The notes beneath the pieces were generated by a model. The model did not search any database, was not told the DNA's origin, and saw nothing but the letters and a program-made list of their open reading frames with translations. This document shows positions 2,596 through 38,509 of a stretch of DNA of 64,000 bases, in pieces (the stretch's first letter is position 1; each line of letters opens with the position of its first letter). The position numbers were made by a program, and so were the translations under genes. The stretch lies in the NCBI GenBank assembly GCA_017622795.1, contig JAGAQI010000075.1, positions 6,477 to 70,476 on the forward strand, in the 5' to 3' direction. This DNA comes from Lachnospiraceae bacterium. Its GTDB lineage: Bacteria; Bacillota; Clostridia; Lachnospirales; Lachnospiraceae.

Positions 2596-3600
2596 ATGGA
2601 AGATTCCAAAAAGACTTTATTCAGTGGCATGCAGGCCACCGGAAACTTAACCTTAGGTAACTATTTAGGAGCATTAAAGAACTGGGTGGCATTAAGTGAT
2701 GAGTACAACTGCTTCTACTGCGTTGTTGACGAGCACTCCATCACTGTAAGACAGGACCCGGCAGAACTCAGAAACCGTGCAAGAAAGCTGTTAACCCTTT
2801 ATCTGGCAGCAGGTCTTGACCCGGAGAAAAACTGCATTTATTACCAGAGTCATGTATCTGCCCACGCAGAGCTGGCATGGATTTTAAACTGCTTTACTTA
2901 CATGGGCGAGCTGCAGAGAATGACCCAGTTTAAGGATAAGTCCGCAAAACATGCCGACAATATCAATGCCGGTTTATTCACCTATCCGGTATTGATGGCA
3001 GCAGACATTTTACTGTTCCAGTCTGACGTGGTTCCGGTTGGTATCGACCAGATGCAGCACCTTGAGCTGACCAGAGACATTGCACAGCGTTTCAACGGTA
3101 TTTACGGCGATGTATTTAAGATTCCGGAAGCTTACATCGGAAAGTCCGGTGCCAAGATTATGAGCTTACAGGAGCCAACCAAGAAGATGTCCAAGTCCGA
3201 TGAAAATCCAAACGCAAGCATCTACTTACTGGATGATCCGGATACCATCATGAGAAAGTTTAAACGTGCGGTTACCGATTCCGAAGGAACTATTTTATAC
3301 CGTGATGAGCAGCCGGGTGTAAAGAATTTAATTGATATTTATAGTGCATGTACCGGCAAAGCTCCTGCTGATATTGAAAAGGAATTTGACGGCAAGGGTT
3401 ACGGCGATTTCAAGATGGAAGTAGGTGAAACCGTAGTATCCGTACTTAAGCCTCTTCAGGACAGAATGGCAGATATCGCCAAGGATAAGGCATATGTGGA
3501 TAATGTAATTAAGACCAATGCAGAAAAGGCAAACTACTTTGCAAATAAGACCTTACGCAAGGTACAGAAGAAGGTTGGTTTCCCGGAGAGAATAAGATAA
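2596..3600 (+). CDS. trpS: Tryptophan--tRNA ligase
   Basis: 334 aa; class I aaRS KMSKS motif (KKMSKSD); typical TrpRS N-terminus (FSGMQATGNLTLGNYLGA); strong RBS AAGGAGG. Confidence 0.95.
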   Translation: MEDSKKTLFSGMQATGNLTLGNYLGALKNWVALSDEYNCFYCVVDEHSITVRQDPAELRNRARKLLTLYLAAGLDPEKNCIYYQSHVSAHAELAWILNCFTYMGELQRMTQFKDKSAKHADNINAGLFTYPVLMAADILLFQSDVVPVGIDQMQHLELTRDIAQRFNGIYGDVFKIPEAYIGKSGAKIMSLQEPTKKMSKSDENPNASIYLLDDPDTIMRKFKRAVTDSEGTILYRDEQPGVKNLIDIYSACTGKAPADIEKEFDGKGYGDFKMEVGETVVSVLKPLQDRMADIAKDKAYVDNVIKTNAEKANYFANKTLRKVQKKVGFPERIR

Positions 3601-4437: not shown

Positions 4438-6075
4438 ATGAAAAGCATGAATTATCGCACTATATTCACAATTAAAGAATCAGAAAAAGCAACTGTAGAG
4501 TTGGCAGATGTAGAGGGCTTGAAAGGTCCTGCCGTGGTAAAACGGCTAAAGGGTGCAAATGCCGATATTTACAGGTTGCTTTGTTGCACCCAAAATTTCC
4601 ATATTCCCCGGGTGTTTTTTTGTGAGGAGCAAAGCTGTGAGCTTCTTGTAGCAGAAGAATATGTGGATGGAGAAAATCTGGGTGAACTTCTGCAGAAAAG
4701 GCTGATTTCTGATGAGCAAAAGATTAATTATGCCCTGCAGCTTTGTGAAGCTGTGGGCTTTTTGCATACCCTGAAGCCGACCGTTATTCATAGGGATATC
4801 AAACTCTCCAACATTTTAATCAATGGAAAAAATGAATTGAAGCTGATAGATTTTGATGCGTCCAGACAGTATAAGAATTTCTCAAATGAAGAAGATACTA
4901 GATTGCTCGGAACAAAAGGATATGCTGCTCCGGAGCAGTTTGGGTATTCCCAGACGGATGTGCGCAGCGATATTTATTCCATGGGTGTGGTTTTTCACAA
5001 AATGTGCCCGTTGGAAAATAAAGTGTTGGCAAAACAGTGGGATAAAATTGCTGAAAAATGTACCAGCTTTGACCCGAAAAACCGTTATCAGAATGTGGCG
5101 GAATTAAAGCGGGAATTGGAAAAGCTGGCAGCGTGGAAGAAGGCAAGAAGAATAAAAAACACAGCTTGGATTGGCAGTATAACAGTGGTTTTGGTAGTGG
5201 CAGCGTTGGTGGCAGTATTGTGGCCGAAGGAAACAGAGGCCGGGGATATGGGCGGAATAACTGTGACAACTGCACCGACAACTGCACCGACAACTGTGCC
5301 GACAGATGCACCGACGTTGATACCGACAAGTATACCTACCCCGGAACCAACGGCAACAAGTACACCGACGCCGAAACCAACGGCAACAAATACACCAATG
5401 CCAACGGCAACAAGTGTACCGACGCCGACAATAAAGCCGGAGCTTTCGACGGTTCCGACATCAATAAACCAACACTATTATAAGGGTATGACGGAAGAAA
5501 CGGAACTAATATTAAAGCATGGTTCGGATACTGCGCCGTTACCGGTAACATGGAGTGGGGAATGCTATGATTATGTCACAGGTAAGAATTATTCTATTCC
5601 GATGGATGAGATAGAAATCGGTCCGGGATATATCCGGCTTTTGGATAGCGGACTGATGCAACTGGAACCGTCCATCTATGAGCTTACGATAACGATGCAT
5701 TATGCCAGCAGATGGCCTCAAAGTACCAGCCGGGTGTTAAAAATATATCCGGAAGATGAGTATCCGAAGAAGTCGAATGCAGTGATGGCGACTGGGACAA
5801 ATTATTTTTATTTGAATGATCCCACTGATTTTGTAAAGAATGTTCTGAGTACGGTGACCAGCAAATTCGTAGGGGTATCTGCAGAAATTCCGGGAATGGC
5901 TGCAGTGGAAGTGGATTCTGACTGGTATGAAATTCTTTGCGATGGTAAGGTGATGATTATTCAAAAAGAATTCTTGCAACAGTATTATGAAAACGACCAG
6001 AAAATTAATCTGATTTACCACTTTGATGATGGGAAGAATCAGACGATGGTGATTAATTACAAGGAGACAAGATAA
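4438..6075 (+). CDS. Atypical membrane Ser/Thr protein kinase with extracytoplasmic C-terminal domain (paralog 1)
   Basis: 545 aa; catalytic loop HRDIKLSNIL, DFD in place of DFG (LIDFDASR), APE (GYAAPEQ), VVKRLK lysine, no GxGxxG loop; TM WIGSITVVLVVAALVAVLW; Pro/Thr linker; ~210-aa C-terminal domain. Confidence 0.8.
   Translation: MKSMNYRTIFTIKESEKATVELADVEGLKGPAVVKRLKGANADIYRLLCCTQNFHIPRVFFCEEQSCELLVAEEYVDGENLGELLQKRLISDEQKINYALQLCEAVGFLHTLKPTVIHRDIKLSNILINGKNELKLIDFDASRQYKNFSNEEDTRLLGTKGYAAPEQFGYSQTDVRSDIYSMGVVFHKMCPLENKVLAKQWDKIAEKCTSFDPKNRYQNVAELKRELEKLAAWKKARRIKNTAWIGSITVVLVVAALVAVLWPKETEAGDMGGITVTTAPTTAPTTVPTDAPTLIPTSIPTPEPTATSTPTPKPTATNTPMPTATSVPTPTIKPELSTVPTSINQHYYKGMTEETELILKHGSDTAPLPVTWSGECYDYVTGKNYSIPMDEIEIGPGYIRLLDSGLMQLEPSIYELTITMHYASRWPQSTSRVLKIYPEDEYPKKSNAVMATGTNYFYLNDPTDFVKNVLSTVTSKFVGVSAEIPGMAAVEVDSDWYEILCDGKVMIIQKEFLQQYYENDQKINLIYHFDDGKNQTMVINYKETR
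5265..5437 (+). repeat. In-frame low-complexity Pro/Thr linker with imperfect tandem DNA repeats
   Basis: Reiterated acaactgcaccgaca and ccaacggcaacaa(g/a)tacacc units encode TTAPTTAPTT...PTATSTPTPKPTATNTPMPTATS. Confidence 0.8.
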
Positions 6076-6512
6076 TGGGGAACAAGGCGGGAGAAAAAGA
6101 TACTGCGTTTCTGCAGTCGGAGTTGAAAAAGACAGAGAACCTGGAACAATTTCTTCAGGAAAATTCCGAGGTTTTGAAACCAAAAACTGTACAGGAATAC
6201 TTAAATGAAATGTTGATAAAGTATAATTTGGAGAAAAGTGAAATCATTCGGAAATCAGGGTTATCGGGAACGTATGCCTACCAGATTTTTGACGGCAAGA
6301 AAAGTGCCGGACGGGACAAACTCATTCAGCTGGCATTTGGTTTTCCACTTAATCTGGAGGAGACCCAGAAACTGCTCCGCTTTGGTGGTCACAATGAGCT
6401 GTATGTGAAAAAGAAGAGAGAAGCTTTCGTGATGTATGCGTTGGGAAAAGAATATGATATTAATCAGGTAAACGATTTATTATATCAAAATGAGGAGAAG
6501 ACCTTTGAGTAG
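6075..6512 (+). CDS. Small XRE-like HTH protein (paralog 1), translationally coupled to kinase 1
   Basis: 145 aa; start overlaps the kinase stop (TAATG); HTH-like segment IIRKSGLSGTYAYQIFDGKKSAGRDKLIQLAFGFPLNLEETQKLL; paralogs at 6655, 12242 and 13026. Confidence 0.65.
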   Translation: MGNKAGEKDTAFLQSELKKTENLEQFLQENSEVLKPKTVQEYLNEMLIKYNLEKSEIIRKSGLSGTYAYQIFDGKKSAGRDKLIQLAFGFPLNLEETQKLLRFGGHNELYVKKKREAFVMYALGKEYDINQVNDLLYQNEEKTFE

Positions 6513-6526
6513 GTCTTCTTTTTTTT
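6497..6526 (+). terminator. Intrinsic terminator
   Basis: GAAGACCT (6497-6504) / AGGTCTTC (6511-6518) followed by T8. Confidence 0.7.
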
Positions 6527-6552: not shown

Positions 6553-6596
6553 TTATGCTGGCGGCACAAGAATTTCTGAAATAATTGCTTTAATAT
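6553..6596 (+). promoter_or_regulatory. Degenerate copy of the island palindrome box plus -10 (TAATAT)
   Basis: TTATGCTG-G-CGGCACAA (2 mismatches in the right arm) at 6553-6569; TAATAT at 6591-6596, the same 21-nt gap as the seven strong copies. Confidence 0.4.
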
Positions 6597-6654
6597 AAAT
6601 ATGTGGCATATCTGAGCAGATGGCCATGGGAGAAAAGAACGAGGTGTGCACTGC

Positions 6655-7113
6655 ATGAAAAAAGCAACGGAAGAATTGTTGAATGAACTGAAAGAGGCAA
6701 AGGCAATCAGCGAGTTTACCAGTATAAACGAGGGAGAATTTGAGAATATTTCTTTAACAGAAATTCTTGCACAAATGTTGGAAAAATATAAAAAGGCAAG
6801 AATAGATGTCATCAAAGCGGCAAGATTTGATTATACCTACGGATATCAGATTTTTGACGGAAAAAAGCGGCCCAAGAGGGAAAAACTGCTGCAGATGGCC
6901 TTTGGCTTTCCACTAAGCCTGGAGGATACCAACCGCTTACTACGTGCCGGTGGTGTAAATGGGCTGTATGTCCGCTGCAAGCGGGATGTAATCTGCATGT
7001 ACTGTCTTCATAAGGGGATGAGCCTGGAGGAATGTAATTCCTATTTATATCAGCTGGGAGAAGAGACTCTCATTGAGGAGGATAATGATGGGAGTGAAGG
7101 AATGAGAAAATAA
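6655..7113 (+). CDS. Small XRE-like HTH protein (paralog 2)
   Basis: ATG at 6655 (the ORF track begins at GTG 6646); YTYGYQIFDGKKRPKREKLLQMAFGFPLSLEDTNRLLRAGG aligns with the other paralogs. Confidence 0.65.
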   Translation: MKKATEELLNELKEAKAISEFTSINEGEFENISLTEILAQMLEKYKKARIDVIKAARFDYTYGYQIFDGKKRPKREKLLQMAFGFPLSLEDTNRLLRAGGVNGLYVRCKRDVICMYCLHKGMSLEECNSYLYQLGEETLIEEDNDGSEGMRK

Positions 7114-7160
7114 TTAAGAAATTAATTATAAATATACTTATTTAGAGAAGGAGAAAGAAA

Positions 7161-7346
7161 ATGATTTTACTATTAATTATCTATTGGATTGCCGGTTATT
7201 GGGCATATGGAGTTGTATTTTATGAAGGAAAGATTGTTATGGCAAGACAAGGGCAGATTTTTGCAACAAAATTAGTGCAGGGACTTGTTTTTGGTTGGTT
7301 ATGGATTCCGGTGGCACTCGTAAAGAAAATTTTTGGAATAAGATAA
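7161..7346 (+). CDS. Small two-TM membrane protein
   Basis: 61 aa; RBS GAAGGAGAAAG; two hydrophobic segments. Confidence 0.5.
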   Translation: MILLLIIYWIAGYWAYGVVFYEGKIVMARQGQIFATKLVQGLVFGWLWIPVALVKKIFGIR

Positions 7347-7371
7347 AGAAAAAATAAGGAGATTTTTAGAA

Positions 7372-8220
7372 ATGTGTAAAAGGTGTGAGTTGTGCCATTC
7401 AACTGATGCATATGAAACGAGGTTCGGTATTCAGCTTTGTATGGATTGTATGGATGGTTTTTGGAAAATAATGAAAAATGATACGATTGCAATACAAAAG
7501 TATGCGAAGGAAGAAATGTTTCCAAATGCAACGATGAATGCAAAACAGCAGATTGTTGGTTTAGCAAAGAGAAAGCTGGATGAAGGTCTTGAAAAGCTGG
7601 AACCCAGACATGTTGAAAAAATCGAACCATTACATATGGAGAAAGTTGAGACAAGAAATAAGATGACTACGGAAGACACTAAAGAAAATACTAAAGAAAA
7701 TATAAAACCACAGCAAGGAATTACTTTAACTTCCCCGGAGAGCTTGGACGATTTGTCTGCAAAGTGCAATATTATTTATGTGATTGGCATAATTGTGATG
7801 GCGCTTTTCTTTGGGAATATTATTCTCGGCATAATTTTTGGGCTGGTTGCAGGGTGGATTATAAAAGGACCGATGATATTAAAATCCGCAACCTATAAAT
7901 TTAGGACAATGGAATTTTTAATGCCTGCAAATATTACTCTTGAGGAAATATACAGGGAAATTTCCCCAAAGTTAAATTCACAGGAGCTGGATGTTACTTT
8001 ACAAGAAAATAATTTGGAGTTTCATCATGGTTCTATTCACTATCAGTTTTTGACGGACGGAACGGAAGGTACATTCCGGCTGAGATGGTATTATTCGGTG
8101 GCAAAAGCTATGCTTGGCTCAAGAGATATCCATGACTATAAGGTAGTAAGACAGGATACAGGTCTCATTGCGTATGCGATTCAGAATGTGTCGGTGGAAA
8201 ACGGAGATACGGTAAAATAA
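7372..8220 (+). CDS. Zinc-ribbon / TM / C-terminal domain protein, function unknown
   Basis: 282 aa; N-terminal CxxC...CxxC (CKRCELC...CMDC); TM IIYVIGIIVMALFFGNIILGIIFGLVAGWII; RBS AAGGAGA. Confidence 0.6.
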   Translation: MCKRCELCHSTDAYETRFGIQLCMDCMDGFWKIMKNDTIAIQKYAKEEMFPNATMNAKQQIVGLAKRKLDEGLEKLEPRHVEKIEPLHMEKVETRNKMTTEDTKENTKENIKPQQGITLTSPESLDDLSAKCNIIYVIGIIVMALFFGNIILGIIFGLVAGWIIKGPMILKSATYKFRTMEFLMPANITLEEIYREISPKLNSQELDVTLQENNLEFHHGSIHYQFLTDGTEGTFRLRWYYSVAKAMLGSRDIHDYKVVRQDTGLIAYAIQNVSVENGDTVK

Positions 8221-8300
8221 AAAAGCACCGGTACCATATTATTGTTTGAAGGTATCGGTTTTGATGCTACGAAATCAGTGATGGTTAACTAAATTATTTA

Positions 8301-8375
8301 TCATAATAAGAAAACTCGTCAAGGATGCGGATTCGTCCTGCTTTTCAGCAAGTCCTTGACGAGTTTTTATTATGA
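8301..8375 (+). terminator. Long composite hairpin, probable terminator
   Basis: TCATAATAAGAAAACTCGTCAAGGA (8301-8325) pairs with TCCTTGACGAGTTTTTATTATGA (8353-8375); 27-nt interior with small hairpins. Confidence 0.6.
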
Positions 8376-8446
8376 TATCCTGAACTTTGATTCCTCCCCA
8401 ACTTTCCGTATGTCTGATTATGATGTGGAGTATCTTTTTTGTGAAA

Positions 8447-8490
8447 TTATGCTGACAGCATAAGAAAAATAAATTAGAAAGTTTTATAAT
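8447..8490 (+). promoter_or_regulatory. Island palindrome box TTATGCTG-A-CAGCATAA plus -10 TATAAT
   Basis: Perfect 8+1+8 dyad at 8447-8463; TATAAT at 8485-8490 after a 21-nt gap; no -35 hexamer; 74 nt upstream of the 8564 start. Confidence 0.6.
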
Positions 8491-8563
8491 AGGATTGCAG
8501 CAAGCCCTCGGGCTTTATCGAACGGGTAAAAGCTGGTAGATAGTAAAGACATAGGAGGAAAAC

Positions 8564-9553
8564 ATGAAAAAGAATATTATTTGCATTATTTTGTTATCAA
8601 TGGTTTGTATGATGGCTGGCTGCCAGTCCAAGGAGGAAAAGGCTTATAAGACTTTAGATAAGGTTGAAGAGCTGACGGCAGAGGGAAAATATGAGGATGC
8701 CCTTAAAAAGCTTGATAAAATCCGGGAAGTAATTGACGTGGAGGATGCAGAGGAAGAAGTACTGTTGGAACGTAAGTATGCAAAGATTCCGGAGGGGGAT
8801 CTTACGGAAAAGGTTCAGGCAGACATAGAATTGGTTGGGGCTACTGACGAAGAACTGATAGGCTTTGACATTTCCTCTGTTACAGAAATTATTACAGACA
8901 GGGATACCATTGAGGATTATCTGGATTCCTATTTTTATGGGGATTGGTATAAGGAAGGTAAAAATAAGTCAATTGAATTTAACGAGTGGGAACTTGACGA
9001 GGAACAATATGGTGTATCCTATATGTTCCGTGTGTCAAATGAATACATAGATAACATTGTTGTAAAAATGTATGAAATGGGTAAGGCTGACAAAGTTTTT
9101 TGCGTTATGCTGGGCAGTTATTATCTGGGGCAGTTACTTGATGGTTACGCGAGCTACTATGAAATTTCTGTTGTGGATTCGAAAGGGAATGTGGAATCAT
9201 ACAGAGATCTTTCCAAGGATGACTTTGAGGAATTAGAGGCAGAGGTTGCCATGGTTTCTGACATGGCCATGATAGAGGAAGAAATTGTTGAAACCACCCA
9301 TGATTCTTTTCTGGAACGGAAAAAAGGAGAGTTTTCCAATATTTTGGATACGGCGTTTGTTTCTTCCGAAATCGTAGATTATTCCGTTACATATTCGGAA
9401 GGAAGCATTATTTGTAGCATGAAAGTGAAATATTATGAGAATAAGTATTCTGCTTTATGGGGTGGAAATTCGCAGATTTTCTACGTAACAGGAACATTTA
9501 ATTACAATAAAAGTACCGGTACCGCATCATTAGTTTCTTTGAATGTGGAGTAA
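8564..9553 (+). CDS. Lipoprotein, function unknown
   Basis: 329 aa; signal peptide with lipobox MMAGC; RBS AGGAGG. Confidence 0.7.
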   Translation: MKKNIICIILLSMVCMMAGCQSKEEKAYKTLDKVEELTAEGKYEDALKKLDKIREVIDVEDAEEEVLLERKYAKIPEGDLTEKVQADIELVGATDEELIGFDISSVTEIITDRDTIEDYLDSYFYGDWYKEGKNKSIEFNEWELDEEQYGVSYMFRVSNEYIDNIVVKMYEMGKADKVFCVMLGSYYLGQLLDGYASYYEISVVDSKGNVESYRDLSKDDFEELEAEVAMVSDMAMIEEEIVETTHDSFLERKKGEFSNILDTAFVSSEIVDYSVTYSEGSIICSMKVKYYENKYSALWGGNSQIFYVTGTFNYNKSTGTASLVSLNVE

Positions 9554-9571
9554 GAAAAGGAGAAACAGAGG

Positions 9572-10198
9572 ATGGAGATTTTTTCGATTATATTGGGCAT
9601 TGTAGTGATACTTGTAATTATTGCATATATCTCGTCACAGATAAGAAAAAACCAGATGGATGAAGAAAGTAAGACAGATGAGAAAAGTGAAGAAGATGCA
9701 TTGTTTGAAGGCATCGATTTTGACGCAATGAAACCGGAAGAAGTTATTCCTTTAGAAGTGTATGAAGTAGAAGAGAATGTAATTACTGAAGAGGAACCGG
9801 TTCCCGGGGAACAGCAAGCTTCAACGCAAGAACCTCAAGCAGACGCTGCTCCTGCTAAACCGGTATTTGTTACAGATGCAGAAACAAGCAGCGGACAAAC
9901 GTATGAAAAGGTTCTTTCCACAGAAGATAAGAGGGAATGGATTGCAAATTTCGTTAGTATTAAGCGGTTTGTTGCTGCGGGTTGGACCTGCATGGGACTC
10001 GGTCTGGGATTCATTTTAGGGCGGCTTCTTGGCGATAATGTTGTCATGGTCTTGCTGATTATACTTGGAGGATTTATCGGGGGAGTATTCGGAACAAACT
10101 CTGTAGGCGCTGCCATGATGAAAGTTATTGCGGCAGAGCAAAGTATTTTAAATGAGGAACTGCTGAAAGAAATTTTAAAACGGTTGGAGGAAAAGTAA
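9572..10198 (+). CDS. Membrane protein with acidic linker and C-terminal glycine-zipper TM pair
   Basis: 208 aa; N-terminal TM; acidic stretch; GLGLGFILGRLLG...LGGFIGGVFG glycine-zipper segments. Confidence 0.65.
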   Translation: MEIFSIILGIVVILVIIAYISSQIRKNQMDEESKTDEKSEEDALFEGIDFDAMKPEEVIPLEVYEVEENVITEEEPVPGEQQASTQEPQADAAPAKPVFVTDAETSSGQTYEKVLSTEDKREWIANFVSIKRFVAAGWTCMGLGLGFILGRLLGDNVVMVLLIILGGFIGGVFGTNSVGAAMMKVIAAEQSILNEELLKEILKRLEEK

Positions 10199-10374
10199 AA
10201 GGGTGAATGAAACGTTTGTATTAACAGGATGTGGAGAGTACACCCTTCAAGAGAATTCAAACAGTAGTGTGCTTAAAGCAAGCAACCGGAGAACAAATAG
10301 AAGATTTGCTTTTAGCCGCTAAAAAGGCAGGTGTAACAGCAACGGATTTGCAGAAACTTGGATTGGAATAATGC

Positions 10375-10411
10375 GAAAAGCATGTCGAGTTTAATCTGGC
10401 ATGCTTTTTTT
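10375..10411 (+). terminator. Intrinsic terminator
   Basis: AAAAGCATG (10376-10384) / CATGCTTTT (10400-10408) running into a T tract. Confidence 0.6.
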
Positions 10412-10425
10412 CAATATAACTTCTT

Positions 10426-10454
10426 TTGACTTTTATCGGAAATAGGTATATACT
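10426..10454 (+). promoter_or_regulatory. Sigma-A type promoter for the kinase 2 operon
   Basis: TTGACT (10426-10431), 17-nt spacer, TATACT (10449-10454). Confidence 0.6.
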
Positions 10455-10484
10455 ATACGTAGATTTTTAAAGGTGGGGAAACCT

Positions 10485-12221
10485 ATGGGATTCGAGTATA
10501 TTACGTTGGAGACATTAAAGAAATCGGATAAAGCCATTATCGAAGTTGCCATGATGGATGACTATCCGGAAAGGGTAGTTGTAAAGCACTTAAAAGGTGT
10601 AAACATCAATTTGTTTCACCAGATATCTTTTTTACATAGTGTTTATATCCCAAAGATTTATAAATGCGAGTTGGATGGAGAATGGTTTGTTGTTATAGAA
10701 GAGTATCTGGAAGGTGAGAATCTGGAAAAATATTTGCGCGAACACCGCCTTACGGATAAGCAGAAATTGGATATTGCCCTGCAATTATGTGAGGCAGTAA
10801 AGTGTCTGCATGCGTTGCAACCGCCAATTATTCACCGTGATATTAAACCGCATAATATTATTGTTAACGAACATGGAGCATTAAAATTAATAGATTTTGA
10901 TGCTTCCCGCTATTATAGAGAAGATGATAACCGTCAGGACACCCGTCTCCTTGGTACTCCGGAATATGCACCGCCGGAACAATACGGCTATTCCCAGACA
11001 GACGTCCGCAGCGATATCTATTCTATGGGTATGGTATTTAAGGAATTGAATCTGACGGAAAAGAAGTTTCTTGTTTCCGAATGGGAAAAAATGGTTGGCA
11101 AGTGCAGAAATTTTGACCCGAAGCATCGGTACCAGACTGTGGATGAGCTGGAAAAAGAAATTAAGAAAATGGCGTTCTTACGCACGATTACCGGAAAAAC
11201 AGTGCTTGGCTGGACAGCAGCCGTTTTACTGTTATTGATAGTATTGTGGCAAGGCTGTATGCTTACCCGCAATAATGATGCAGGTGCAAGTAATCAAAAT
11301 GAAGTAACCGGTATGCCAACTCCAACGGAGGTTGTGCAGGAATCAGTAACACTGGAGCCGAAAGCAACAAGTACACCTGTGCCAACGGAAACACCAACAC
11401 AAGCGGTTGAACCAACTGCAGAACCAACGGCAACAAATACGCCTGTGCCGACAGAAACGCCAACGCCTGTGCCGACGGAAATGCCGGCGAGTGTAAATTC
11501 GCTGATTCCGGGAGTAGAAACAGTAGAAGAATTGGATGCATATTTTGCAAGTACGAATTTATATGTGTACAATTTTTATCGAAGCATTGCAGAACAAACA
11601 AAATTTTATATCGGTGTGGATAGTTTACTTGATACAAGCTGGAAATTTGATAAAATTACCTTTACAAATTATGAAACCGGGGTGGAAGTAGAGGTTCCGG
11701 CTTCGATGATAGATTTGGAAAGCGAAATCATATCGGTATCTAATGATTTTTTATTGGGGCTGGAAGATACCTATTACCAAGTAATAATATATATAACAAA
11801 TGGTGAGAGTTCACTTCCAGCCATGAGTACGGTAGTTAAAGTTTCCGAAGCTGTGGATGAAACAGGACATATACGTGCATTAGGGCGTGACTGGGTAACA
11901 TTCTATGCGCAGTATCCGACAGATATTATTATCACTTCAAACAGCGAGAATGTTTTGAAGATGGAAAAGCTTTATATTTGCCAAAGTGGTATTTATCCGG
12001 ATGGTATCCCTGAGATTTTGGATGCGGAAATATTAACTGAAGTTAATCCGGCTAATTATGAAATCATGGATGCCGGAAAAATGATGAAGCTTAGTAAAGA
12101 ACTTTTAGCAGGTTATTCTAATGAAAGCCGGGTGATTTTTGCTGCACTATGCAATGATGGAAATTATTGGCGGATTGTAGTAGAATATGATAACGGAAAG
12201 CCATACTGGATGCCACAATAA
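10485..12221 (+). CDS. Atypical membrane Ser/Thr protein kinase with extracytoplasmic C-terminal domain (paralog 2)
   Basis: ATG 10485 behind RBS AAAGGTGGGG (the track starts at GTG 10473); HRDIKPHNII, LIDFDASR, EYAPPEQ; TM; Pro/Thr linker; kinase domain clearly paralogous to 4438-6075, C-terminal domain divergent. Confidence 0.8.
   Translation: MGFEYITLETLKKSDKAIIEVAMMDDYPERVVVKHLKGVNINLFHQISFLHSVYIPKIYKCELDGEWFVVIEEYLEGENLEKYLREHRLTDKQKLDIALQLCEAVKCLHALQPPIIHRDIKPHNIIVNEHGALKLIDFDASRYYREDDNRQDTRLLGTPEYAPPEQYGYSQTDVRSDIYSMGMVFKELNLTEKKFLVSEWEKMVGKCRNFDPKHRYQTVDELEKEIKKMAFLRTITGKTVLGWTAAVLLLLIVLWQGCMLTRNNDAGASNQNEVTGMPTPTEVVQESVTLEPKATSTPVPTETPTQAVEPTAEPTATNTPVPTETPTPVPTEMPASVNSLIPGVETVEELDAYFASTNLYVYNFYRSIAEQTKFYIGVDSLLDTSWKFDKITFTNYETGVEVEVPASMIDLESEIISVSNDFLLGLEDTYYQVIIYITNGESSLPAMSTVVKVSEAVDETGHIRALGRDWVTFYAQYPTDIIITSNSENVLKMEKLYICQSGIYPDGIPEILDAEILTEVNPANYEIMDAGKMMKLSKELLAGYSNESRVIFAALCNDGNYWRIVVEYDNGKPYWMPQ
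11313..11486 (+). repeat. In-frame Pro/Thr-rich linker, low complexity
   Basis: Encodes PTPTEVVQESVTLEPKATSTPVPTETPTQAVEPTAEPTATNTPVPTETPTPVPTE with reiterated cctgtgccgac(a/g)gaaa units. Confidence 0.75.
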
Positions 12222-12241
12222 ATTACATCGGAGGAATATTT

Positions 12242-12697
12242 ATGGGAATCAAAGACGAAAAACCAACGGTACTCATGGATTCTGAAATGACAAAGCTCAG
12301 AAATGAAAATGATTTGGATAAGTTTCTGGAAGAGAATGATGACAATATGTTTACTCTTCGGGTAAGGGACTTTCTGATGAAGATGATGGTTCAGTATGAT
12401 ATGGATAAAAAGGATATCATTCCACGTTCCGGCCTAGCTACCTCTTATGCTCATAATATATTCAATGGCGATAAAGGGGACAAAGCAAAATACGGCAGAG
12501 ATAAGCTGATTATGTTGGCAATTGGTTTTCCTCTTACTTTGGAAGAAACCAATAAACTGTTGAAATATGGCGGACATAGTCCGTTGTATTCCAAGAACAG
12601 ACGGGATGCTATTATAATGTTTGCCATCGGGAAGCAATATTCTTATATAAAAACCAATGAGTGTTTGGATGAGCACGGGGAAGAACCGTTAGTGTAA
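12242..12697 (+). CDS. Small XRE-like HTH protein (paralog 3), downstream partner of kinase 2
   Basis: 151 aa; RBS GGAGGAA; SYAHNIFNGDKGDKAKYGRDKLIMLAIGFPLTLEETNKLLKYGG aligns with the paralogs. Confidence 0.65.
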   Translation: MGIKDEKPTVLMDSEMTKLRNENDLDKFLEENDDNMFTLRVRDFLMKMMVQYDMDKKDIIPRSGLATSYAHNIFNGDKGDKAKYGRDKLIMLAIGFPLTLEETNKLLKYGGHSPLYSKNRRDAIIMFAIGKQYSYIKTNECLDEHGEEPLV

Positions 12698-12712
12698 AAT
12701 AAGTAAAATGAA

Positions 12713-12753
12713 GAGAACAAGTAGTGTTTTTAAATACTGCTTGTTCTTTTTTT
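12713..12753 (+). terminator. Intrinsic terminator
   Basis: AGAACAAGTAGT / ACTGCTTGTTCT stem followed by T7. Confidence 0.7.
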
Positions 12754-12769
12754 GTGCAAAGAAACAGGT

Positions 12770-12813
12770 TTATGCTGCCAGCATAACAAGTGGGGTAGGA
12801 AAAGAAGTAAACT
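12770..12813 (+). promoter_or_regulatory. Island palindrome box TTATGCTG-C-CAGCATAA plus -10 TAAACT
   Basis: Perfect dyad at 12770-12786; TAAACT at 12808-12813 after a 21-nt gap. Confidence 0.55.
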
Positions 12814-12870
12814 AAAGTTGCAAAATCAAACAAAGCAGAGCTTTCTTAAAAGTAAAGGAGGATCAATATT

Positions 12871-13026
12871 ATGACTATAGTGATGGAATTAAGAAAATGT
12901 ACTGCATGCGGAAAAAAATATAGCTTTAATCCTGCTATAGGACATTTTAACTGTCCACATTGCAGAGGTTTAGGAAAAATCAAAAAGGGGCCGAAGAGAA
13001 AACCCAAGAAGGGAGGAATTTTCTGA
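12871..13026 (+). CDS. 51-aa zinc-ribbon microprotein with basic tail
   Basis: Absent from the ORF track (under 60 aa); RBS AAGGAGGA 7 nt upstream; MTIVMELRKCTACGKKYSFNPAIGHFNCPHCRGLGKIKKGPKRKPKKGGIF has CxxC...CxxC. Confidence 0.5.
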   Translation: MTIVMELRKCTACGKKYSFNPAIGHFNCPHCRGLGKIKKGPKRKPKKGGIF

Positions 13027-13241
13027 TGCAGGAAACCTATAAGAGAGTTGAACTGCTAAAAAAATCTTTGGCAAATGCACTATCTTTAGAAGCCACTAAT
13101 CAAATGCTACGTTTGGGTGGTGAACCGGAATTGTATTCGAAAAACAGACGGGATGCAATTTGTATGTTTTGCATAAATCTGCAGATGGGATTGGAAAAGT
13201 GCAACGAATTGCTGGAGCGGTACGATGAGGTGACACTGTAA
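13026..13241 (+). CDS. Truncated paralog of the island HTH family (C-terminal half only)
   Basis: ATG 13026 overlaps the upstream TGA (TGATG); LSLEATNQMLRLGGEPELYSKNRRDAICMFCI matches the C-terminal half of the paralogs; recognition-helix region absent. Confidence 0.5.
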   Translation: MQETYKRVELLKKSLANALSLEATNQMLRLGGEPELYSKNRRDAICMFCINLQMGLEKCNELLERYDEVTL

Positions 13242-13401
13242 GAGAACTAAATATTGGAAAACTTGGCAGAAACTATGGATGTCAAGCTTGTTGTTTTTAC
13301 AAATGAAATAGGAATATACAACAATTGTGAGGAAATGGATGCTCGGACAGTTGGTGCGTCCGAAAAGAAACTCTTTAAACTATTCCGTTGGTTAGGTAGT
13401 T

Positions 13402-13445
13402 TTATGCCGGCAGCATAACAAAATGGACGTGAAGTGAGGTAAGCT
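13402..13445 (+). promoter_or_regulatory. Island palindrome box TTATGCCG-G-CAGCATAA plus weak -10 TAAGCT
   Basis: Dyad with one mismatch at 13402-13418; TAAGCT at 13440-13445 after a 21-nt gap. Confidence 0.45.
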
Positions 13446-13485
13446 GAAATTACAAAGAAACCATTGTAGTGAAGGAGGAACGAAC

Positions 13486-13719
13486 ATGAGCTTAGAAAAC
13501 AAAATAATTGATTATGCAATCAGTCATTATTATGAAATGCCAAAAACAATTCAAAAGAAAATGGTAACGGAAGGAAAGAAGTATATTGAGAGAGAGCATC
13601 CGATTGCAAGTATGTTTATGCCGGATTCGACCAAAGAGAAATGTGTGAAAAGTTATTTTAATTCAAAAGCAAACTGCACATCAATTGGGACTTGTTTTAG
13701 CAAATGTATTAGCGTATAG
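13486..13719 (+). CDS. Hypothetical 77-aa protein
   Basis: RBS GAAGGAGGAA; no recognisable motif; Cys/Ser/Thr-rich C-terminus NCTSIGTCFSKCISV. Confidence 0.5.
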   Translation: MSLENKIIDYAISHYYEMPKTIQKKMVTEGKKYIEREHPIASMFMPDSTKEKCVKSYFNSKANCTSIGTCFSKCISV

Positions 13720-13741
13720 ACGCGGAAAGAGAGGAAATATC

Positions 13742-14128
13742 ATGACTACAGAAAAAGAATTAGCAAACGCTATCGAGAGAAATGAAAATGAAATCGTAAT
13801 TGAAGGCGACTTAAGTAACAAGGTAATTCGAATTAAGGCCACCGGAGCTGTAGCCTGGGGCGCCTGTATTATAGGACTCGGCGCAGTGGTTGCTCTTGGA
13901 ATTGCCACCGCAGGAAGCGGAGGAACAGCTACTCTGATTACGCTACCGGCAATGGGCGCTGCGTTAATGACTACTGCTCCGGTTGCAGTTGCCAGCATGG
14001 GTCTTCCAGCAGCGGTTTCTGCAGTGGGAATTGCTATGGCAGGCGGTGGTTGCGGTGTATTGAATAAGCTCAGGGATTACAAGCTGGTTAAGGTAAGCAA
14101 GGATAAAGTGATTCTTTACCGGAAGTAA
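13742..14128 (+). CDS. Gly/Ala-rich membrane protein (glycine-zipper type)
   Basis: ATG 13742 behind GAGAGGAAA (the track starts earlier, at 13685); soluble N-terminus TEKELANAIERNENEIVIEGDL, then a long Gly/Ala hydrophobic region, then a basic tail. Confidence 0.6.
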   Translation: MTTEKELANAIERNENEIVIEGDLSNKVIRIKATGAVAWGACIIGLGAVVALGIATAGSGGTATLITLPAMGAALMTTAPVAVASMGLPAAVSAVGIAMAGGGCGVLNKLRDYKLVKVSKDKVILYRK

Positions 14129-14129
14129 T

Positions 14130-14173
14130 TTATGCTACCAGCATAACAAACATAAAGCTACAACATATATAAT
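14130..14173 (+). promoter_or_regulatory. Island palindrome box TTATGCTA-C-CAGCATAA plus -10 TATAAT
   Basis: Dyad with one mismatch at 14130-14146, starting 2 nt after the upstream stop codon; TATAAT at 14168-14173 after a 21-nt gap. Confidence 0.6.
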
Positions 14174-14236
14174 TACAAATGTAAACAACAGACAAGTAAG
14201 TCTGAAAACGAATTTAATCCATAGGAGGAAAATGAA

Positions 14237-15205
14237 ATGAAAAAAGATTTTTATGAAGCATTAGAACAAGACATCGTAGGTTTAGGACTAGCAGAAGAGG
14301 AAAAGAGTAAGTTGTTAAAGCATATTATGCAGCTGAAGGCTCAGAAACTGAATATCATGGTAGTCGGAGGAACCGGCTGTGGTAAGAGTTCCACTATCAA
14401 CGCATTATTTGATGCTCCGGTTGCCAAAGTAGGAGAACGTCCGGATCCGGAAACCATGACGATTGAAAAGTATGAATTAGACAACCTGATTTTGTGGGAC
14501 ACACCGGGACTTGGTGATGGTAAAGAAGCCGACAAAAAGCATGCAAAAAACATTATTGACAAGCTTGTTGAAAAGGATAGCGATGGTAAGGCACTAATCG
14601 ATTTGGTATTAGTAATTCTCGATGGTTCCAGTAGAGACATGGGAACGTCCTTTGAGTTAATTAACAATGTGATCATTCCTAATTTAGGCGAAGAGCAAAA
14701 GGAAAGAATTCTGGTTGCTATCAACAAAGCTGATATGGCTAAGCCAAGACATTGGGATTACAACAAAAATGAACCGGATGAGATTCTGAAAGAGTTTCTG
14801 GAAGAGAAAATCAAGTCCGTGAAAAAGAGAATCAAGGAATCTACCGGCGTTGATGTAAATCCGATTTATTATTGCGCAGGCGATATGGATGATGGTGAGC
14901 AGCGCAAGGCATACAATCTGACAAAGCTCTTATGTTGGATGATTAAGGCAACTCCAACAGAAAAAAGAATTGTTTATGCAAATAATATGAATCAACAGCC
15001 TGAAATATGGGTAGATGACGATGAAATCATGGACTATGGTCAGGAAATCAGAAAAGATATCTGGGGCTCTGTTACAGAGGGTGCAGGTGTTGGCGGTGCC
15101 ATTGGTGAAGCAATCGGAACTATTTTCCATTGTGGACCGATAGGAAGAGCTGTCGGCACGGCAGTTGGTGCTGTAGTAGGATTCTTCTGTGGTATCTTTG
15201 GTTAA
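14237..15205 (+). CDS. Small P-loop GTPase (MMR_HSR1/YfjP-like) with C-terminal glycine-zipper tail (paralog 1)
   Basis: 322 aa; G1 GGTGCGKSS, G3 WDTPGLGD, G4 NKAD; C-terminal GAGVGGAIGEAIGTIF...GRAVGTAVGAVVGFFCGIFG. Confidence 0.8.
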   Translation: MKKDFYEALEQDIVGLGLAEEEKSKLLKHIMQLKAQKLNIMVVGGTGCGKSSTINALFDAPVAKVGERPDPETMTIEKYELDNLILWDTPGLGDGKEADKKHAKNIIDKLVEKDSDGKALIDLVLVILDGSSRDMGTSFELINNVIIPNLGEEQKERILVAINKADMAKPRHWDYNKNEPDEILKEFLEEKIKSVKKRIKESTGVDVNPIYYCAGDMDDGEQRKAYNLTKLLCWMIKATPTEKRIVYANNMNQQPEIWVDDDEIMDYGQEIRKDIWGSVTEGAGVGGAIGEAIGTIFHCGPIGRAVGTAVGAVVGFFCGIFG

Positions 15206-15213
15206 TAGAGTTG

Positions 15214-15255
15214 GAAGCCCAAGCGTGATTTGTACCGTTTGGGCTTCTCTTAATA
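15214..15255 (+). terminator. Probable terminator
   Basis: GAAGCCCAAGCG / CGTTTGGGCTTC stem; weak T tract (TCTTAATAAT). Confidence 0.55.
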
Positions 15256-15265
15256 ATAAACAACT

Positions 15266-15309
15266 TTATGCTGCCAGCATAACAAACCATGGTAAAAACA
15301 AGTTATAAT
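15266..15309 (+). promoter_or_regulatory. Island palindrome box TTATGCTG-C-CAGCATAA plus -10 TATAAT
   Basis: Perfect dyad at 15266-15282; TATAAT at 15304-15309 after a 21-nt gap. Confidence 0.6.
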
Positions 15310-15354
15310 AAAATTACAAAATAACACAAAACAAATCCAAAGGGGGTAAATAAT

Positions 15355-15591
15355 ATGTTTTTTGATTTTATTTCTGATTTAGTAATTGGCGCCTGTGATC
15401 TGGGATTTAAGCTGGATAGTGCTATATTTGGTGATTCTTCTGCTGATGCCGATGCACTTATGAAAGTGATTTTAAATGCGACTCAGAATGAAGAGGCAGA
15501 GGATACATACGTAGAAGCTGACGTTAAGTCCGCGGACGGAACAAGTACGATAGCTACAAGTATTGAAGGCATTAAAAAACACGTTTATTAA
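15355..15591 (+). CDS. Small hydrophobic-acidic protein with conserved KHVY C-terminal tail (paralog 1)
   Basis: 78 aa; RBS AAGGGGG; hydrophobic N-terminus, acidic middle, C-terminus IATSIEGIKKHVY matching 17262-17474. Confidence 0.6.
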   Translation: MFFDFISDLVIGACDLGFKLDSAIFGDSSADADALMKVILNATQNEEAEDTYVEADVKSADGTSTIATSIEGIKKHVY

Positions 15592-15617
15592 TAGGAACCG
15601 TTAAGGAGGAAAAAGAG

Positions 15618-16322
15618 ATGAAGAGAAATATTATGTTAGTCGGAGGAACCGGCTATGGTAAAAGTTCTACAATCAATGCATTGTGTAATACTCCGGTGGC
15701 AGCGGTAGCGGCTCTTGAAGAACCGGAAACAAAAGAAATCAGGAAGTATGAAACGGATAACATGGTTCTTTGGGACACACCGGGAATCGGTAGCAGTGTA
15801 GAAGAAGACAGTAAAAATATAGAGGCTTTAAAAAGTATGCTTCGTGAAAAAGACGAAGCAGGAAATCTGTTAATTGCTCAGGTGGTGCTTGTGATGGATG
15901 CCGGAAGCAGAGATATGGGGACTTCTTTTGAACTGCTCAATGACGTAATTGTTCCAAACTTAGGTGACAACCGTAAAGACAGAATTTTAGTGGCTTTAAA
16001 CCGTTGCGATGCAGTAAAGCCTAGAAACTGGAACTATGAAGCAAATGAGCCGGATGAAGTACTTAAGCAATTTCTAGAGGAAAAGGCAGAATCTGTAAAA
16101 ACAAGAATTTCAGAGTCTATCGGTATAGATGTTGAAGTTATTTATTACTGTGCCGGCGAGACAGAGAATGACGAACAGAGTCCGGCTTATAATTTGGATA
16201 AACTGGTTGCTAAGCTGATGGAGGTGACAACAACTGAGAGTGTGGTGGCTGAAAGAAACATCACTGTACAAAAGAAGGAATCTTTTATCAAGAGAATGAT
16301 CCGCAGACTTTTTGGTCGCTAA
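15618..16322 (+). CDS. Small P-loop GTPase (paralog 2)
   Basis: 234 aa; G1 GGTGYGKSS, G3 WDTPGIG, G4 variant NRCD; basic amphipathic C-terminus KESFIKRMIRRLFGR; RBS AAGGAGGA. Confidence 0.8.
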   Translation: MKRNIMLVGGTGYGKSSTINALCNTPVAAVAALEEPETKEIRKYETDNMVLWDTPGIGSSVEEDSKNIEALKSMLREKDEAGNLLIAQVVLVMDAGSRDMGTSFELLNDVIVPNLGDNRKDRILVALNRCDAVKPRNWNYEANEPDEVLKQFLEEKAESVKTRISESIGIDVEVIYYCAGETENDEQSPAYNLDKLVAKLMEVTTTESVVAERNITVQKKESFIKRMIRRLFGR

Positions 16323-16330
16323 TTCATAAT

Positions 16331-16369
16331 GAGGCAGACAGTATAAGCTGTTTGCCTCTCCTTCTTTTA
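16331..16369 (+). terminator. Intrinsic terminator
   Basis: GAGGCAGACAG / CTGTTTGCCTC stem followed by TCCTTCTTTTAT. Confidence 0.65.
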
Positions 16370-16387
16370 TGGCGAAAAGAACTGATA

Positions 16388-16431
16388 TTATGCTGTCAGC
16401 ATAACAATATGAGTTACAAAAGATCTATACT
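16388..16431 (+). promoter_or_regulatory. Island palindrome box TTATGCTG-T-CAGCATAA plus -10 TATACT
   Basis: Perfect dyad at 16388-16404; TATACT at 16426-16431 after a 21-nt gap. Confidence 0.6.
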
Positions 16432-16477
16432 TAAGATACAAGATAACAAATGAATTGTTACATAAGAGGAGGTAAAT

Positions 16478-17161
16478 ATGAATAGCGTATATAGACAAAA
16501 TGATATTGAAAGAAATGCCAAGAGAGCAGGGTTTTACCCAATGGATATTGTGGTAGTCGGAGGAACCGGAGCCGGAAAATCATCTACAATGAATGCACTT
16601 TTTGAGAAGGAAGTAGCGAAGGTAGGACACGGATGTGACCCGGAAACCAGCAAGAACAGTCATAAAGAATTGAACCAGTATTTACGTTTCTGGGATACAC
16701 CGGGATTCGGAGACAGCGTGGAAAAGGATAAAAAATATGCAAAGGACTTAATTAAGCTGCTAAATGAGTCCTGGACGGATAATGGAAGAACAATATATGG
16801 TGCAATCGATATGGTTATCGTTATTTTGGATGGTTCTGGTAGGGATATGGGAACCACCTATAAAATTTTGAATGAGGTAGTGCTTCCAAACTTCCCAAGT
16901 GATCGGATTTTGATGGCAATCAACCAGGCAGATGCAGCAAAGAGTCCAAAGCATTGGAATAATCAAAAAAATGAACCGGATGAAGTGTTGAAGAGCTTTT
17001 TAGAAGAAAAAGCAATTTCTGTAAAACGGAGAATTGAAGAAGCCACTGGAACCAGAGTATGTAAGCCGGTGTACTATTCAGCAGAAAAGGAATATAACGT
17101 TGAAAAATTATTAGATATGATAATTGATAATATGCCAACTTCGAGAAGAAAGATACAATAA
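16478..17161 (+). CDS. Small P-loop GTPase (paralog 3)
   Basis: 227 aa; G1 GGTGAGKSS, G3 WDTPGFGD, G4 variant NQAD; shares the DMGT..(L/I)N.V..PN and NEPDE(I/V)LK.FLEEK blocks with paralogs 1 and 2. Confidence 0.8.
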   Translation: MNSVYRQNDIERNAKRAGFYPMDIVVVGGTGAGKSSTMNALFEKEVAKVGHGCDPETSKNSHKELNQYLRFWDTPGFGDSVEKDKKYAKDLIKLLNESWTDNGRTIYGAIDMVIVILDGSGRDMGTTYKILNEVVLPNFPSDRILMAINQADAAKSPKHWNNQKNEPDEVLKSFLEEKAISVKRRIEEATGTRVCKPVYYSAEKEYNVEKLLDMIIDNMPTSRRKIQ

Positions 17162-17164
17162 AGT

Positions 17165-17208
17165 TTATGCTGTCAGCATAACAATTGAACGGAGAAAAGA
17201 AATATAAT
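17165..17208 (+). promoter_or_regulatory. Island palindrome box TTATGCTG-T-CAGCATAA plus -10 TATAAT
   Basis: Perfect dyad at 17165-17181, starting 4 nt after the GTPase 3 stop; TATAAT at 17203-17208 after a 21-nt gap. Confidence 0.6.
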
Positions 17209-17261
17209 TAAATCATAAAGAAACACAAAAAAGAAAAAAGATGTTTAAGGGAGCAAAAAAA

Positions 17262-17474
17262 ATGGCATTAGGTTTATTAACTAGTTTAGCATTAGGAGCA
17301 GTAGGGTTGGTCAGTGCAGGAGCAATTGTTACAAACAGTTCCGGTGGTTCTGTTTATTACGGTTCTACTTATGAGGATAACGATGAAGAATGGGATGATG
17401 AGTGGGAAGATGAAGATGAGGAAATCACAGAGGTGGCTACCAGTATTAGAGGCATCAGCAAGCATGTGTATTAA
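17262..17474 (+). CDS. Small hydrophobic-acidic protein with conserved KHVY C-terminal tail (paralog 2)
   Basis: ATG 17262 behind AAGGGAG (the track starts at 17241); hydrophobic N-terminus MALGLLTSLALGAVGLVSAGAIV, acidic run EDNDEEWDDEWEDEDEE, C-terminus VATSIRGISKHVY. Confidence 0.6.
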   Translation: MALGLLTSLALGAVGLVSAGAIVTNSSGGSVYYGSTYEDNDEEWDDEWEDEDEEITEVATSIRGISKHVY

Positions 17475-38428: not shown

Positions 38429-38509
38429 AATTTAAGAGAAATTTTGATTTTATCTCTTGACATTTCTCTAAAATTTCTTTACTATACAAAGAAGATATAG
38501 TTAAATGTA

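Follow-up and report, generated by a model that had tools for sequence, protein, structure and literature searches.

Phage lambda cI protein, bound at OR2, activates PRM from a 17-bp operator centered at −42, where it contacts sigma region 4. Bacterial Hanks-type serine/threonine kinases are usually seen as pleiotropic, with few dedicated transcriptional outputs. Here, we describe a 17-bp palindrome (the box), found eight times in a 64-kb stretch of a metagenome-assembled Lachnospiraceae genome (contig JAGAQI010000075.1, positions 6,477 to 70,476; hereafter the window), which lies upstream of genes in an island that also encodes receptor-like Hanks kinases and helix-turn-helix (HTH) proteins, and which is likely to be the operator of a promoter activated by those proteins.

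The locus resembles lambda OR2/PRM in the fold class of the regulator, the 17-bp odd-centered operator near −42, the weak −35 element, and positive autoregulation (here predicted, for the gene of HTH2). It differs in that the HTH family, which is chromosomal and kinase linked, has an N-terminal extension (helices 1 and 2) and a C-terminal two-helix domain and lacks an S24/LexA-like C-terminal domain, a tripartite operator, and a lysogeny context. The small XRE-type dimers C.AhdI, C.Esp1396I, and ClgR also activate from a dyad that overlaps the −35 element or lies just upstream of it (template modeling [TM] scores, 0.65 to 0.74 over the HTH core); however, C proteins are ~80 amino acids (aa) long and use paired C-boxes in restriction-modification operons, of which there is none here, and ClgR, an actinobacterial protein, has a different, GC-rich motif and controls clp genes. 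Class II promoters of CRP and FNR share a dyad at about −41.5/−42, a missing or poor −35 element, and strict helical phasing, whereas the proteins themselves are winged-helix regulators that have ligand-binding domains, recognize a 22-bp site, and share neither sequence nor fold with the HTH family. RRNPP regulators (PlcR and ComR/Rgg) are Firmicute XRE-HTH activators with a palindrome upstream of the −10 element, and a likeness to the PlcR box had been noted in a first-pass annotation of the window. That likeness holds for the outer letters (TATG...CATA) and is otherwise superficial: RRNPP proteins are ~280 to 320 aa long with a tetratricopeptide repeat (TPR) peptide-binding domain, while the HTH proteins are 145 to 155 aa long without a TPR match; the PlcR box (TATGNAN4TNCATA) is 16 bp and even centered, with half-site spacing 1 nucleotide (nt) off and without TGC..GCA; and, unlike in RRNPP systems, no pheromone gene was seen at the locus, where the input of the signal appears to come through a kinase.

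Hanks kinases paired with transcription factors include PknH-EmbR, PknL-Rv2175c, PknK-VirS, and AfsK-AfsR, and in Rv2175c an N-terminal threonine controls DNA binding (PMC4601284). The locus recalls these pairs in that a kinase gene stands beside the gene of a DNA-binding protein and an N-terminal threonine is conserved in 95% of the family; the known pairs, however, are actinobacterial, their factors are of FHA/BTAD, winged-helix, or AraC types, and none is known to have a defined regulon with a class II-type box. In the open-access literature searched, half-site strings returned primers only, and no description of the HTH family, the box, or the kinase pairing was found. The parts (Cro/CI activator, class II geometry, and Hanks kinase with a neighboring factor) are of known kinds, and their combination, its breadth, and its sharply conserved operator appear to be undescribed.

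The box in the window

The dyad was searched for as TTATGCTGNCAGCATAA (17 bp; TTATGCTG-N-CAGCATAA) with up to two mismatches, which gave exactly eight sites in the 64-kb window (0.01 expected; 0 of 100 shuffles reached eight). All eight are followed by a 21-nt spacer and then TAnnnT (P, ~2e-14 to 4e-13, for a TAnnnT background frequency in the region of 0.019 to 0.028). The sites, the −10-like hexamers, and the sequence in the −35 slot (at 17-nt spacing) are as follows.

6553..6569 (+), degenerate dyad TTATGCTGGCGGCACAA with two mismatches; −10 TAATAT at 6591-6596; −35 slot AAGAAT; predicted promoter of HTH2 (6646-7113)
8447..8463 (+), perfect dyad; −10 TATAAT at 8485-8490; −35 slot AAGAAA; predicted promoter of the lipoprotein-like 8564-9553 and of 9572-10198
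12770..12786 (+), perfect dyad; −10 TAAACT at 12808-12813; −35 slot AACAAG; predicted promoter of Zn-ribbon open reading frame (ORF) 12871-13026 and a truncated HTH paralog (12960-13241)
13402..13418 (+), dyad with one mismatch; −10 TAAGCT at 13440-13445; −35 slot AACAAA; predicted promoter of 13486-13719 and a Gly-rich membrane protein (13685-14128)
14130..14146 (+), dyad with one mismatch; −10 TATAAT at 14168-14173; −35 slot AACAAA; predicted promoter of GTPase 1
15266..15282 (+), perfect dyad; −10 TATAAT at 15304-15309; −35 slot AACAAA; predicted promoter of a 78-aa ORF (15355-15591) and GTPase 2
16388..16404 (+), perfect dyad; −10 TATACT at 16426-16431; −35 slot AACAAT; predicted promoter of GTPase 3
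17165..17181 (+), perfect dyad; −10 TATAAT at 17203-17208; −35 slot AACAAT; predicted promoter of a small membrane/acidic protein (17241[17262]-17474)

The copies, their mismatch counts (five perfect, two with one, and 6553 with two), the central bases (A, C, G, C, C, T, T from 8447 on), and the fixed distance to a −10-like hexamer agree with the first-pass annotation, as does the lack of a −35 hexamer at 17-nt spacing: the slots read AA(C/G)AAN, none is TTGACA, and none matches it at more than 3 of 6 positions. Two of its measurements needed correction. The box that it gave as 22 bp in six copies is a string of 21 letters (CAA does follow six dyads, and the leading T is present in five of those six), and the distance to the start codon, given as 55 to 90 nt, measured 59/67 to 100 nt from the dyad end. 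Allowing three mismatches added one site in the 64-kb window, at 23253 within a GH127 gene, no more than chance would give (0.37 expected). An extended −10 TG is absent from all eight window promoters, and a generic sigma-70 scan calls none of them. Terminator-like hairpins lie just upstream of boxes 6553 (terminator at 6492-6523), 12770 (hairpin with T-run), 15266, and 16388 (terminator at 16331-16358), so each box would open a new transcription unit.

Perfect palindromes in many intergenic copies are also what a REP/MITE-like element, or a structural one such as a cruciform or RNA hairpin, without a role in initiation would look like, but this explanation is effectively refuted. Only the 17 bp and ~4 nt are shared between copies, the surrounding sequence being unrelated; the register to the −10 and downstream genes is fixed; none occurs elsewhere in the 64 kb; and a 1-nt loop cannot form. 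The earlier exclusion of an RNA hairpin or terminator role is upheld by the 1-nt center and by the CAA or GAC, rather than a T-run, after the dyad. An intrinsic terminator was likewise rejected, as the true terminators lie upstream of boxes, and so was a MerR-type promoter, since the dyad is located entirely upstream of the −35 slot and not between the −35 and −10 elements (the type with a 19- to 20-bp spacer).

Comparison across genomes

The exact palindrome was scanned for in one genome each of 185,579 species (596 Gb) and found at 119 loci or more (at least 119), about as many copies as our own estimate expects by chance in 596 Gb. Among the matches listed, 37 sites have a homolog of the HTH proteins (30 to 46% identical) in the same 8-kb block, mostly with a kinase, and TAnnnT stands at exactly 21 nt in 33 of these 37; the corresponding counts are 16 of 37 for the remaining Clostridia sites and 2 of 46 for sites in unrelated phyla. 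The spacer histogram of the HTH-linked sites (12 to 31 nt) has 34 at 21 nt versus 0 to 9 at any other length. For the spacing, the copies in unrelated phyla provide a negative control within the same scan. The class II-like position proposed earlier is thus borne out by a 21-nt register that is kept in Clostridia and absent from chance copies of other phyla, and a generic REP-like scatter unrelated to promoters was not seen, the window copies all being in register with a −10 and a downstream gene.

From the protein side, 80 metagenome loci were picked by HTH homology only. When HTH-selected loci were searched blind for any 8-N-8 palindrome with TAnnnT 21 nt further on, almost all that came back belonged to this dyad family, and without the −10 condition the hexamer was at 21 nt in 13 of 17 non-redundant family dyads and at 20 or 22 nt in two more. 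The dyads are of the types TTATGCTGNCAGCATAA, TTATGCTAATAGCATAA, GTATGC(T/C)G.C(G/A)GCATAC, and GTCTGCCGCCAGCAGAC, with half-sites beginning GTGTGCTG, GTATGC, or GTCTGC; the variants alter both half-sites symmetrically and track HTH subfamilies. One variant, GTGTGCTGCCAGCACAA, has TATAAT at 21 nt on each side, so the site looks bidirectional. The orthologous islands of two related Lachnospiraceae (HTH 78% and 66% identical) have three box promoters each, and in both islands, L205 and L206, the ortholog of the degenerate dyad 6553 is perfect or near perfect (L206, 10433; L205, 10470).

Co-occurrence with the HTH gene across Clostridia, together with the predicted Cro/CI fold of its product (below), supports the earlier reading of the dyad as a protein-recognized site bound by the XRE-type HTH paralogs. 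A different regulator encoded elsewhere might bind it instead, with HTH and kinase genes just frequent members of the regulon: among the matches listed, 16 Clostridia sites with a proper −10 lack an HTH gene in the 8-kb block, and the two exact sites of locus L094 are remote from HTH genes. We consider this very unlikely, since half of the Clostridia exact matches listed have the otherwise rare HTH gene less than 8 kb away, the dyad sequence shifts in step with HTH subfamilies, a 17-bp odd-centered dyad is the classic Cro/CI operator geometry, and no other DNA-binding gene is consistently present at the loci.

L094 belongs to the species representative JAZSFC01, a sister genome 92 to 99% identical to the source genome across shared DNA, and its exact boxes (2399 and 6692; another contig) have no HTH gene nearby. 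The 397-aa product of a dyad target in L094 was considered as a long HTH paralog and rejected by hhalign (probability, 0.85%). At L067 6100-8000 the same genome carries an insertion relative to window position ~2195: between the UvrD-like helicase and T-box/trpS, it has an extra exact box and a gene whose 593-aa product is a secreted protein. The claim that the box is limited to the island therefore stands within the 64 kb and fails for the sister genome, whose extra boxes (L094, L067) suggest a regulon that is strain variable and reaches past the island.

The HTH family

The island encodes three full-length HTH proteins and a truncated one:

6075..6512 (+), HTH1, 145 aa, directly after kinase 1; Cro/CI fold; candidate dyad-binding activator
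6646..7113 (+), HTH2, 155 aa, paralog 42% identical to HTH1; behind dyad 6553
12242..12697 (+), HTH3, 151 aa, paralog 46% identical to HTH1; after kinase 2
12960..13241 (+), truncated HTH paralog, 93 aa as listed; C-terminal half only, no recognition helix

Of the four island HTH paralogs first counted, HTH1 to HTH3 stand, and the fourth (12960-13241) is a truncated copy without a recognition helix, aligning with HTH1 residues 79 to 143 (hhalign probability, 98.6%). Predicted to be driven by box 12770, it may act as an anti-activator or dominant-negative partner. ORF 13685-14128 was tried as a fourth paralog and rejected, its product being the Gly-rich membrane protein.

The sequence of HTH1 is identical (100%) to that of NCBI protein J6C07_07595. 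HTH1, HTH2, and HTH3 had no Pfam or NCBIfam match at an E value of ≤0.01 (HTH_3, HTH_19, and HTH_31 included), the family profile, run against PDB sequences, gave nothing significant, and a weak HTH_19 match was seen in one homolog only; some homologs are labeled "XRE family transcriptional regulator" in source records. The AlphaFold2 model of HTH1 (pLDDT, 91) has nine short helices with a Cro/CI-type core, and its top foldseek matches were DdrO, 434 Cro, C.AhdI, C.Esp1396I, ClgR, and HipB (TM score, 0.6 to 0.78 over the HTH core; probability, 1.0); by this model, the protein has the five-helix Cro/CI (XRE) fold.

The family comprises at least 1,659 representatives at 50% identity (E value, ≤1e-10), nearly all ~140 aa long. 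Among 50,697 phage records, 6 matched, including four unverified "Listeria phage" contigs that match a Listeria chromosome locus; 3 viral contigs also matched, and a plasmid search returned only mislabeled pieces of Listeria chromosome and one weak Paraclostridium match. A phage origin of the family is unlikely, given the scarce phage and viral matches.

The recognition helix, Y-x-Y-Q-I-F-x-G, is almost invariant across the family (YAYQIF in HTH1, YAHNIF in HTH3). The residue between its two tyrosines tends to track the dyad (A/G with TTATGC, C with GTATGC, and V with GTCTGC), a suggestive covariation with dyad type. Outside the HTH core, the N-terminal motif K-x-T-(E/D)-E-L has threonine in 116 and serine in 3 of 122 sequences (119 family representatives plus HTH1 to HTH3); this residue (HTH1 residue 10; window, ~6102-6104) is a candidate phosphosite for the adjacent kinase.

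Promoter anatomy

A logo was built from 69 non-redundant promoters with the −10 hexamer set at −12 to −7. With the start site assumed to be 7 nt past the −10, the dyad spans −50 to −34 and is centered at −42, with an uninformative central base and an invariant TGC..GCA core. On the promoter side only, it is followed by C/G at −33, A at −32 (94%), A/C at −31, and A/T at −30, while an extended −10 TG is not conserved among the 69 promoters. The proximal element resembles the 3′ half of TTGACA at 17-nt spacing, so a vestigial −35 would abut the operator, and the earlier statement that these promoters have no −35 is right for the hexamer and overlooks this conserved residual half. The asymmetry of the element fits sigma region 4 touching a residual −35. 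As in class II activation, the site centers near −42 (for this start site) and the core promoter is deficient. A layout that we call type B lends further support: the dyad separates an HTH-X-kinase operon, which is served by a TTGACA-17-TATAAT promoter of its own, from a divergent target, a DUF6809 gene, which has only the dyad and a −10.

As the main rival reading, the same dyad could be a repressor operator, at which an XRE-type dimer over −50 to −34 blocks RNA polymerase, at promoters for which a −10 suffices, until the kinase or another cue relieves it. The top fold matches DdrO, 434 Cro, and HigA are repressors, the dyad extends over the upstream edge of the −35 slot, and its position before the HTH gene itself in 13 loci would fit autorepression. 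Repression, however, needs no single-nucleotide spacing, and the 21-nt distance recurs in over 60 non-redundant promoters from different families; promoters without a −35 or extended −10 are expected to be weak unaided; the regulator operons have separate consensus sigma-A promoters clear of the dyad; and bidirectional sites have a −10 placed symmetrically on both sides. A repressor operator is therefore unlikely. Activation is favored by the single-nucleotide spacing, the lack of a −35 or extended −10, the half −35 on the proximal side only, and the symmetric bidirectional sites, and we infer it from this geometry, as we infer binding of the dyad by the HTH protein. The box is thus probably the operator of an activator-dependent sigma-A promoter: a dimer of HTH1, HTH2, or HTH3 would bind the dyad at −42, and its promoter-proximal subunit would recruit or stabilize RNA polymerase, in the manner of lambda cI at OR2, of restriction-modification controller proteins, and of class II CRP sites.

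Several points weigh against this activator reading. Most characterized XRE proteins are repressors, and the foldseek E values for the HTH protein are weak (≥0.05). For the conserved N-terminal threonine, the role of a helix N-cap is as plausible as that of a phosphosite. The box rule is not universal in the family, as no recognizable dyad is seen in ~1/3 of the HTH-selected loci, namely, some 20 that have a kinase along with the HTH gene (L122-L142) and a subgroup without kinases (L138-L157). The Listeria site described below has a poor −10 (TCTAAT), at 22 nt, and several Ruminococcus loci have a box promoter aimed into a convergent gene.

Among the dyad-less loci L122-L157, other palindromes and spacings gave nothing convincing save TGTGC-T-GCACA in one subgroup. 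Kinase-less loci L143, L147, L150-L153, and L161 have this shorter dyad, TCCTGTGC-T-GCACATGA, with the TGTGC half-sites 4 bp closer and TAnnnT at 21 nt in every locus but L161; this may be an operator variant whose half-sites are spaced differently.

Kinases and the island

The island (~4.4 to 17.5 kb) lies between trpS/HAD and sbcDC and has a GC content below that of its surroundings. Besides the HTH genes and several small or membrane proteins, it encodes the following.

4438..6075 (+), receptor Ser/Thr kinase 1; Hanks kinase domain, one transmembrane segment, Pro/Thr-rich linker, extracellular domain
10473..12221 (+), receptor Ser/Thr kinase 2; architecture as kinase 1
14237-15205, GTPase 1; P-loop GTPase with a Gly-zipper C terminus
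15618-16322, GTPase 2; P-loop GTPase
16478-17161, GTPase 3; P-loop GTPase

Both kinases have an N-terminal kinase domain (PF00069) and an ectodomain of ~250 aa, and the transmembrane segment and large extracellular domain make them look like receptors. Kinase 2 has its own sigma-A-like promoter (TTGACT-17-TATACT, 10426-10454). The three GTPases match LeoA-like and MMR_HSR1 models.

A kinase gene adjoins that of the HTH protein in the majority of the 37 genome loci (among the matches listed) and in ~55 of the 80 metagenome loci, and also in Listeria (lmo0618). The suggested co-occurrence of the box with GTPase and kinase genes accordingly holds in part: kinases are tightly linked to the HTH gene, a tie to the regulator that the first-pass annotation had missed, and the GTPases are specific to the window lineage. 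From this adjacency, and by analogy with the actinobacterial pairs, the receptor kinases probably control the HTH protein by phosphorylation, in which case the signal would run from kinase to activator to box.

The pairing of a kinase with an XRE protein also recalls HipA/HipB, and the locus could be read as a HipBA-like toxin-antitoxin or defense module with a kinase toxin, an HTH antitoxin/autorepressor, and the dyad as autoregulatory operator. The kinase domains match PD-T4-6, mad6, and Stk2 models, the GTPases match LeoA models, and the island is low in GC and variable between strains. The kinases, however, are of the Hanks type (PF00069) with a transmembrane segment and ectodomain, not HipA (PF07804/PF07805); the PADLOC matches are to generic kinase-domain and P-loop models; most dyads drive genes outside the HTH-kinase pair; and the HTH family is rare in phages. 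Such a module is highly improbable.

Taken together, the observations might describe a widespread, as yet undescribed, two-component-like pathway of Clostridia and Listeria, in which a receptor Hanks kinase phosphorylates a Cro/CI-fold activator (perhaps on the N-terminal threonine) that turns on a private envelope/GTPase regulon from the −42 operator, with truncated paralogs as anti-activators and, in some species, a promoter in the loop of the kinase terminator; we offer this composite picture tentatively, as possible rather than probable. The locus points away from the usual view of Hanks-type kinases as pleiotropic, toward a large regulator family that lacks a Pfam or NCBIfam model and is genetically tied to receptor kinases, with a sharp operator and fixed promoter geometry. 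Its spacing rules, binding, and phosphorylation become directly testable.

Predicted regulon

In the window, the regulon would comprise HTH2, the truncated paralog, envelope and small membrane proteins, and the three LeoA-like GTPases. Elsewhere it would consist mostly of membrane-anchored proteins: across loci, dyads precede genes for DUF4352/DUF5067 proteins with a membrane anchor (19 loci), the HTH protein (13 loci), tRNA_anti-like OB-fold proteins, likewise membrane anchored (12 loci), and DUF6809 proteins (7 loci), and further for small multi-transmembrane proteins, lipoproteins, and Mor-like, VWA, and metallophosphatase proteins. Predicted regulon content turns over quickly between genomes. 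For hundreds of Clostridia of the gut and rumen, sequence is enough to predict such a regulon, and the box would be a compact, probably inducible promoter part for Clostridia, which are genetically hard hosts.

The syntenic island of L206 (8366-12512) is minimal, with uvrD-like, trpS, HAD, kinase, HTH, HTH2, four small ORFs, and sbcDC, and has no GTPases and no second kinase; window positions 8.5 to 17.5 kb therefore look like a lineage-specific expansion. Two box-driven small proteins of the window, 15355-15591 (directly 5′ of GTPase 2) and 17241-17474 (after GTPase 3), share the C-terminal motif ATSI(E/R)GI(K/S)KHVY and have no family match.

Listeria and putative nested promoters

In Listeria monocytogenes NCTC7974 (L204 3172-5450, lmo0617-lmo0619), the gene of an HTH homolog (151 aa, 42% identical; annotated as hypothetical) is divergent from that of the 380-aa kinase lmo0618, and a DUF5067 gene comes after the kinase gene. 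Between the latter two stands TCCTATGCCTGCTGCATAGGA with a GAC flank behind it, an element in which TATGC-N5-GCATA is kept and, unlike in the window box, the inner dyad bases are not palindromic. In the open-access literature searched, lmo0618 is mentioned only as a putative kinase, picked up in a screen for intracellular replication, and for a weak resemblance to TraE1; the present comparison provides a hypothesis for this unexplained locus.

At many divergent HTH/kinase loci, the box comes right after the kinase stop codon, with its −10 at 21 nt in the loop of the kinase-gene terminator hairpin (−18 to −32 kcal/mol, with a T-run). Examples are L044 (3382-3450), L019 (446), L064 (4248), L027 (2650), L007 (1423), L054 (1935), L075 (5273), L061 (3636), L116 (670), L005 (2789), and L018 (2286). 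The terminator stems vary between loci while the loop TATAAT is kept, and the promoter appears to be nested inside the terminator; transcripts from it would miss the 5′ arm and hence escape termination. In Ruminococcus albus KH2T6 (L044 3442-3795, minus strand), the box promoter is aimed into a convergent gene for a classical XRE protein of 117 to 121 aa, and L019, L064, and L027 have the same layout, which would give antisense RNA to a second regulator.

Outside the island, T-box leaders (Rfam RF00230) were found in the window at 2244-2506 (102 bits) and 38501-38742 (126 bits), the former ahead of a class I Trp/Tyr-type tRNA synthetase gene (2596-3600).

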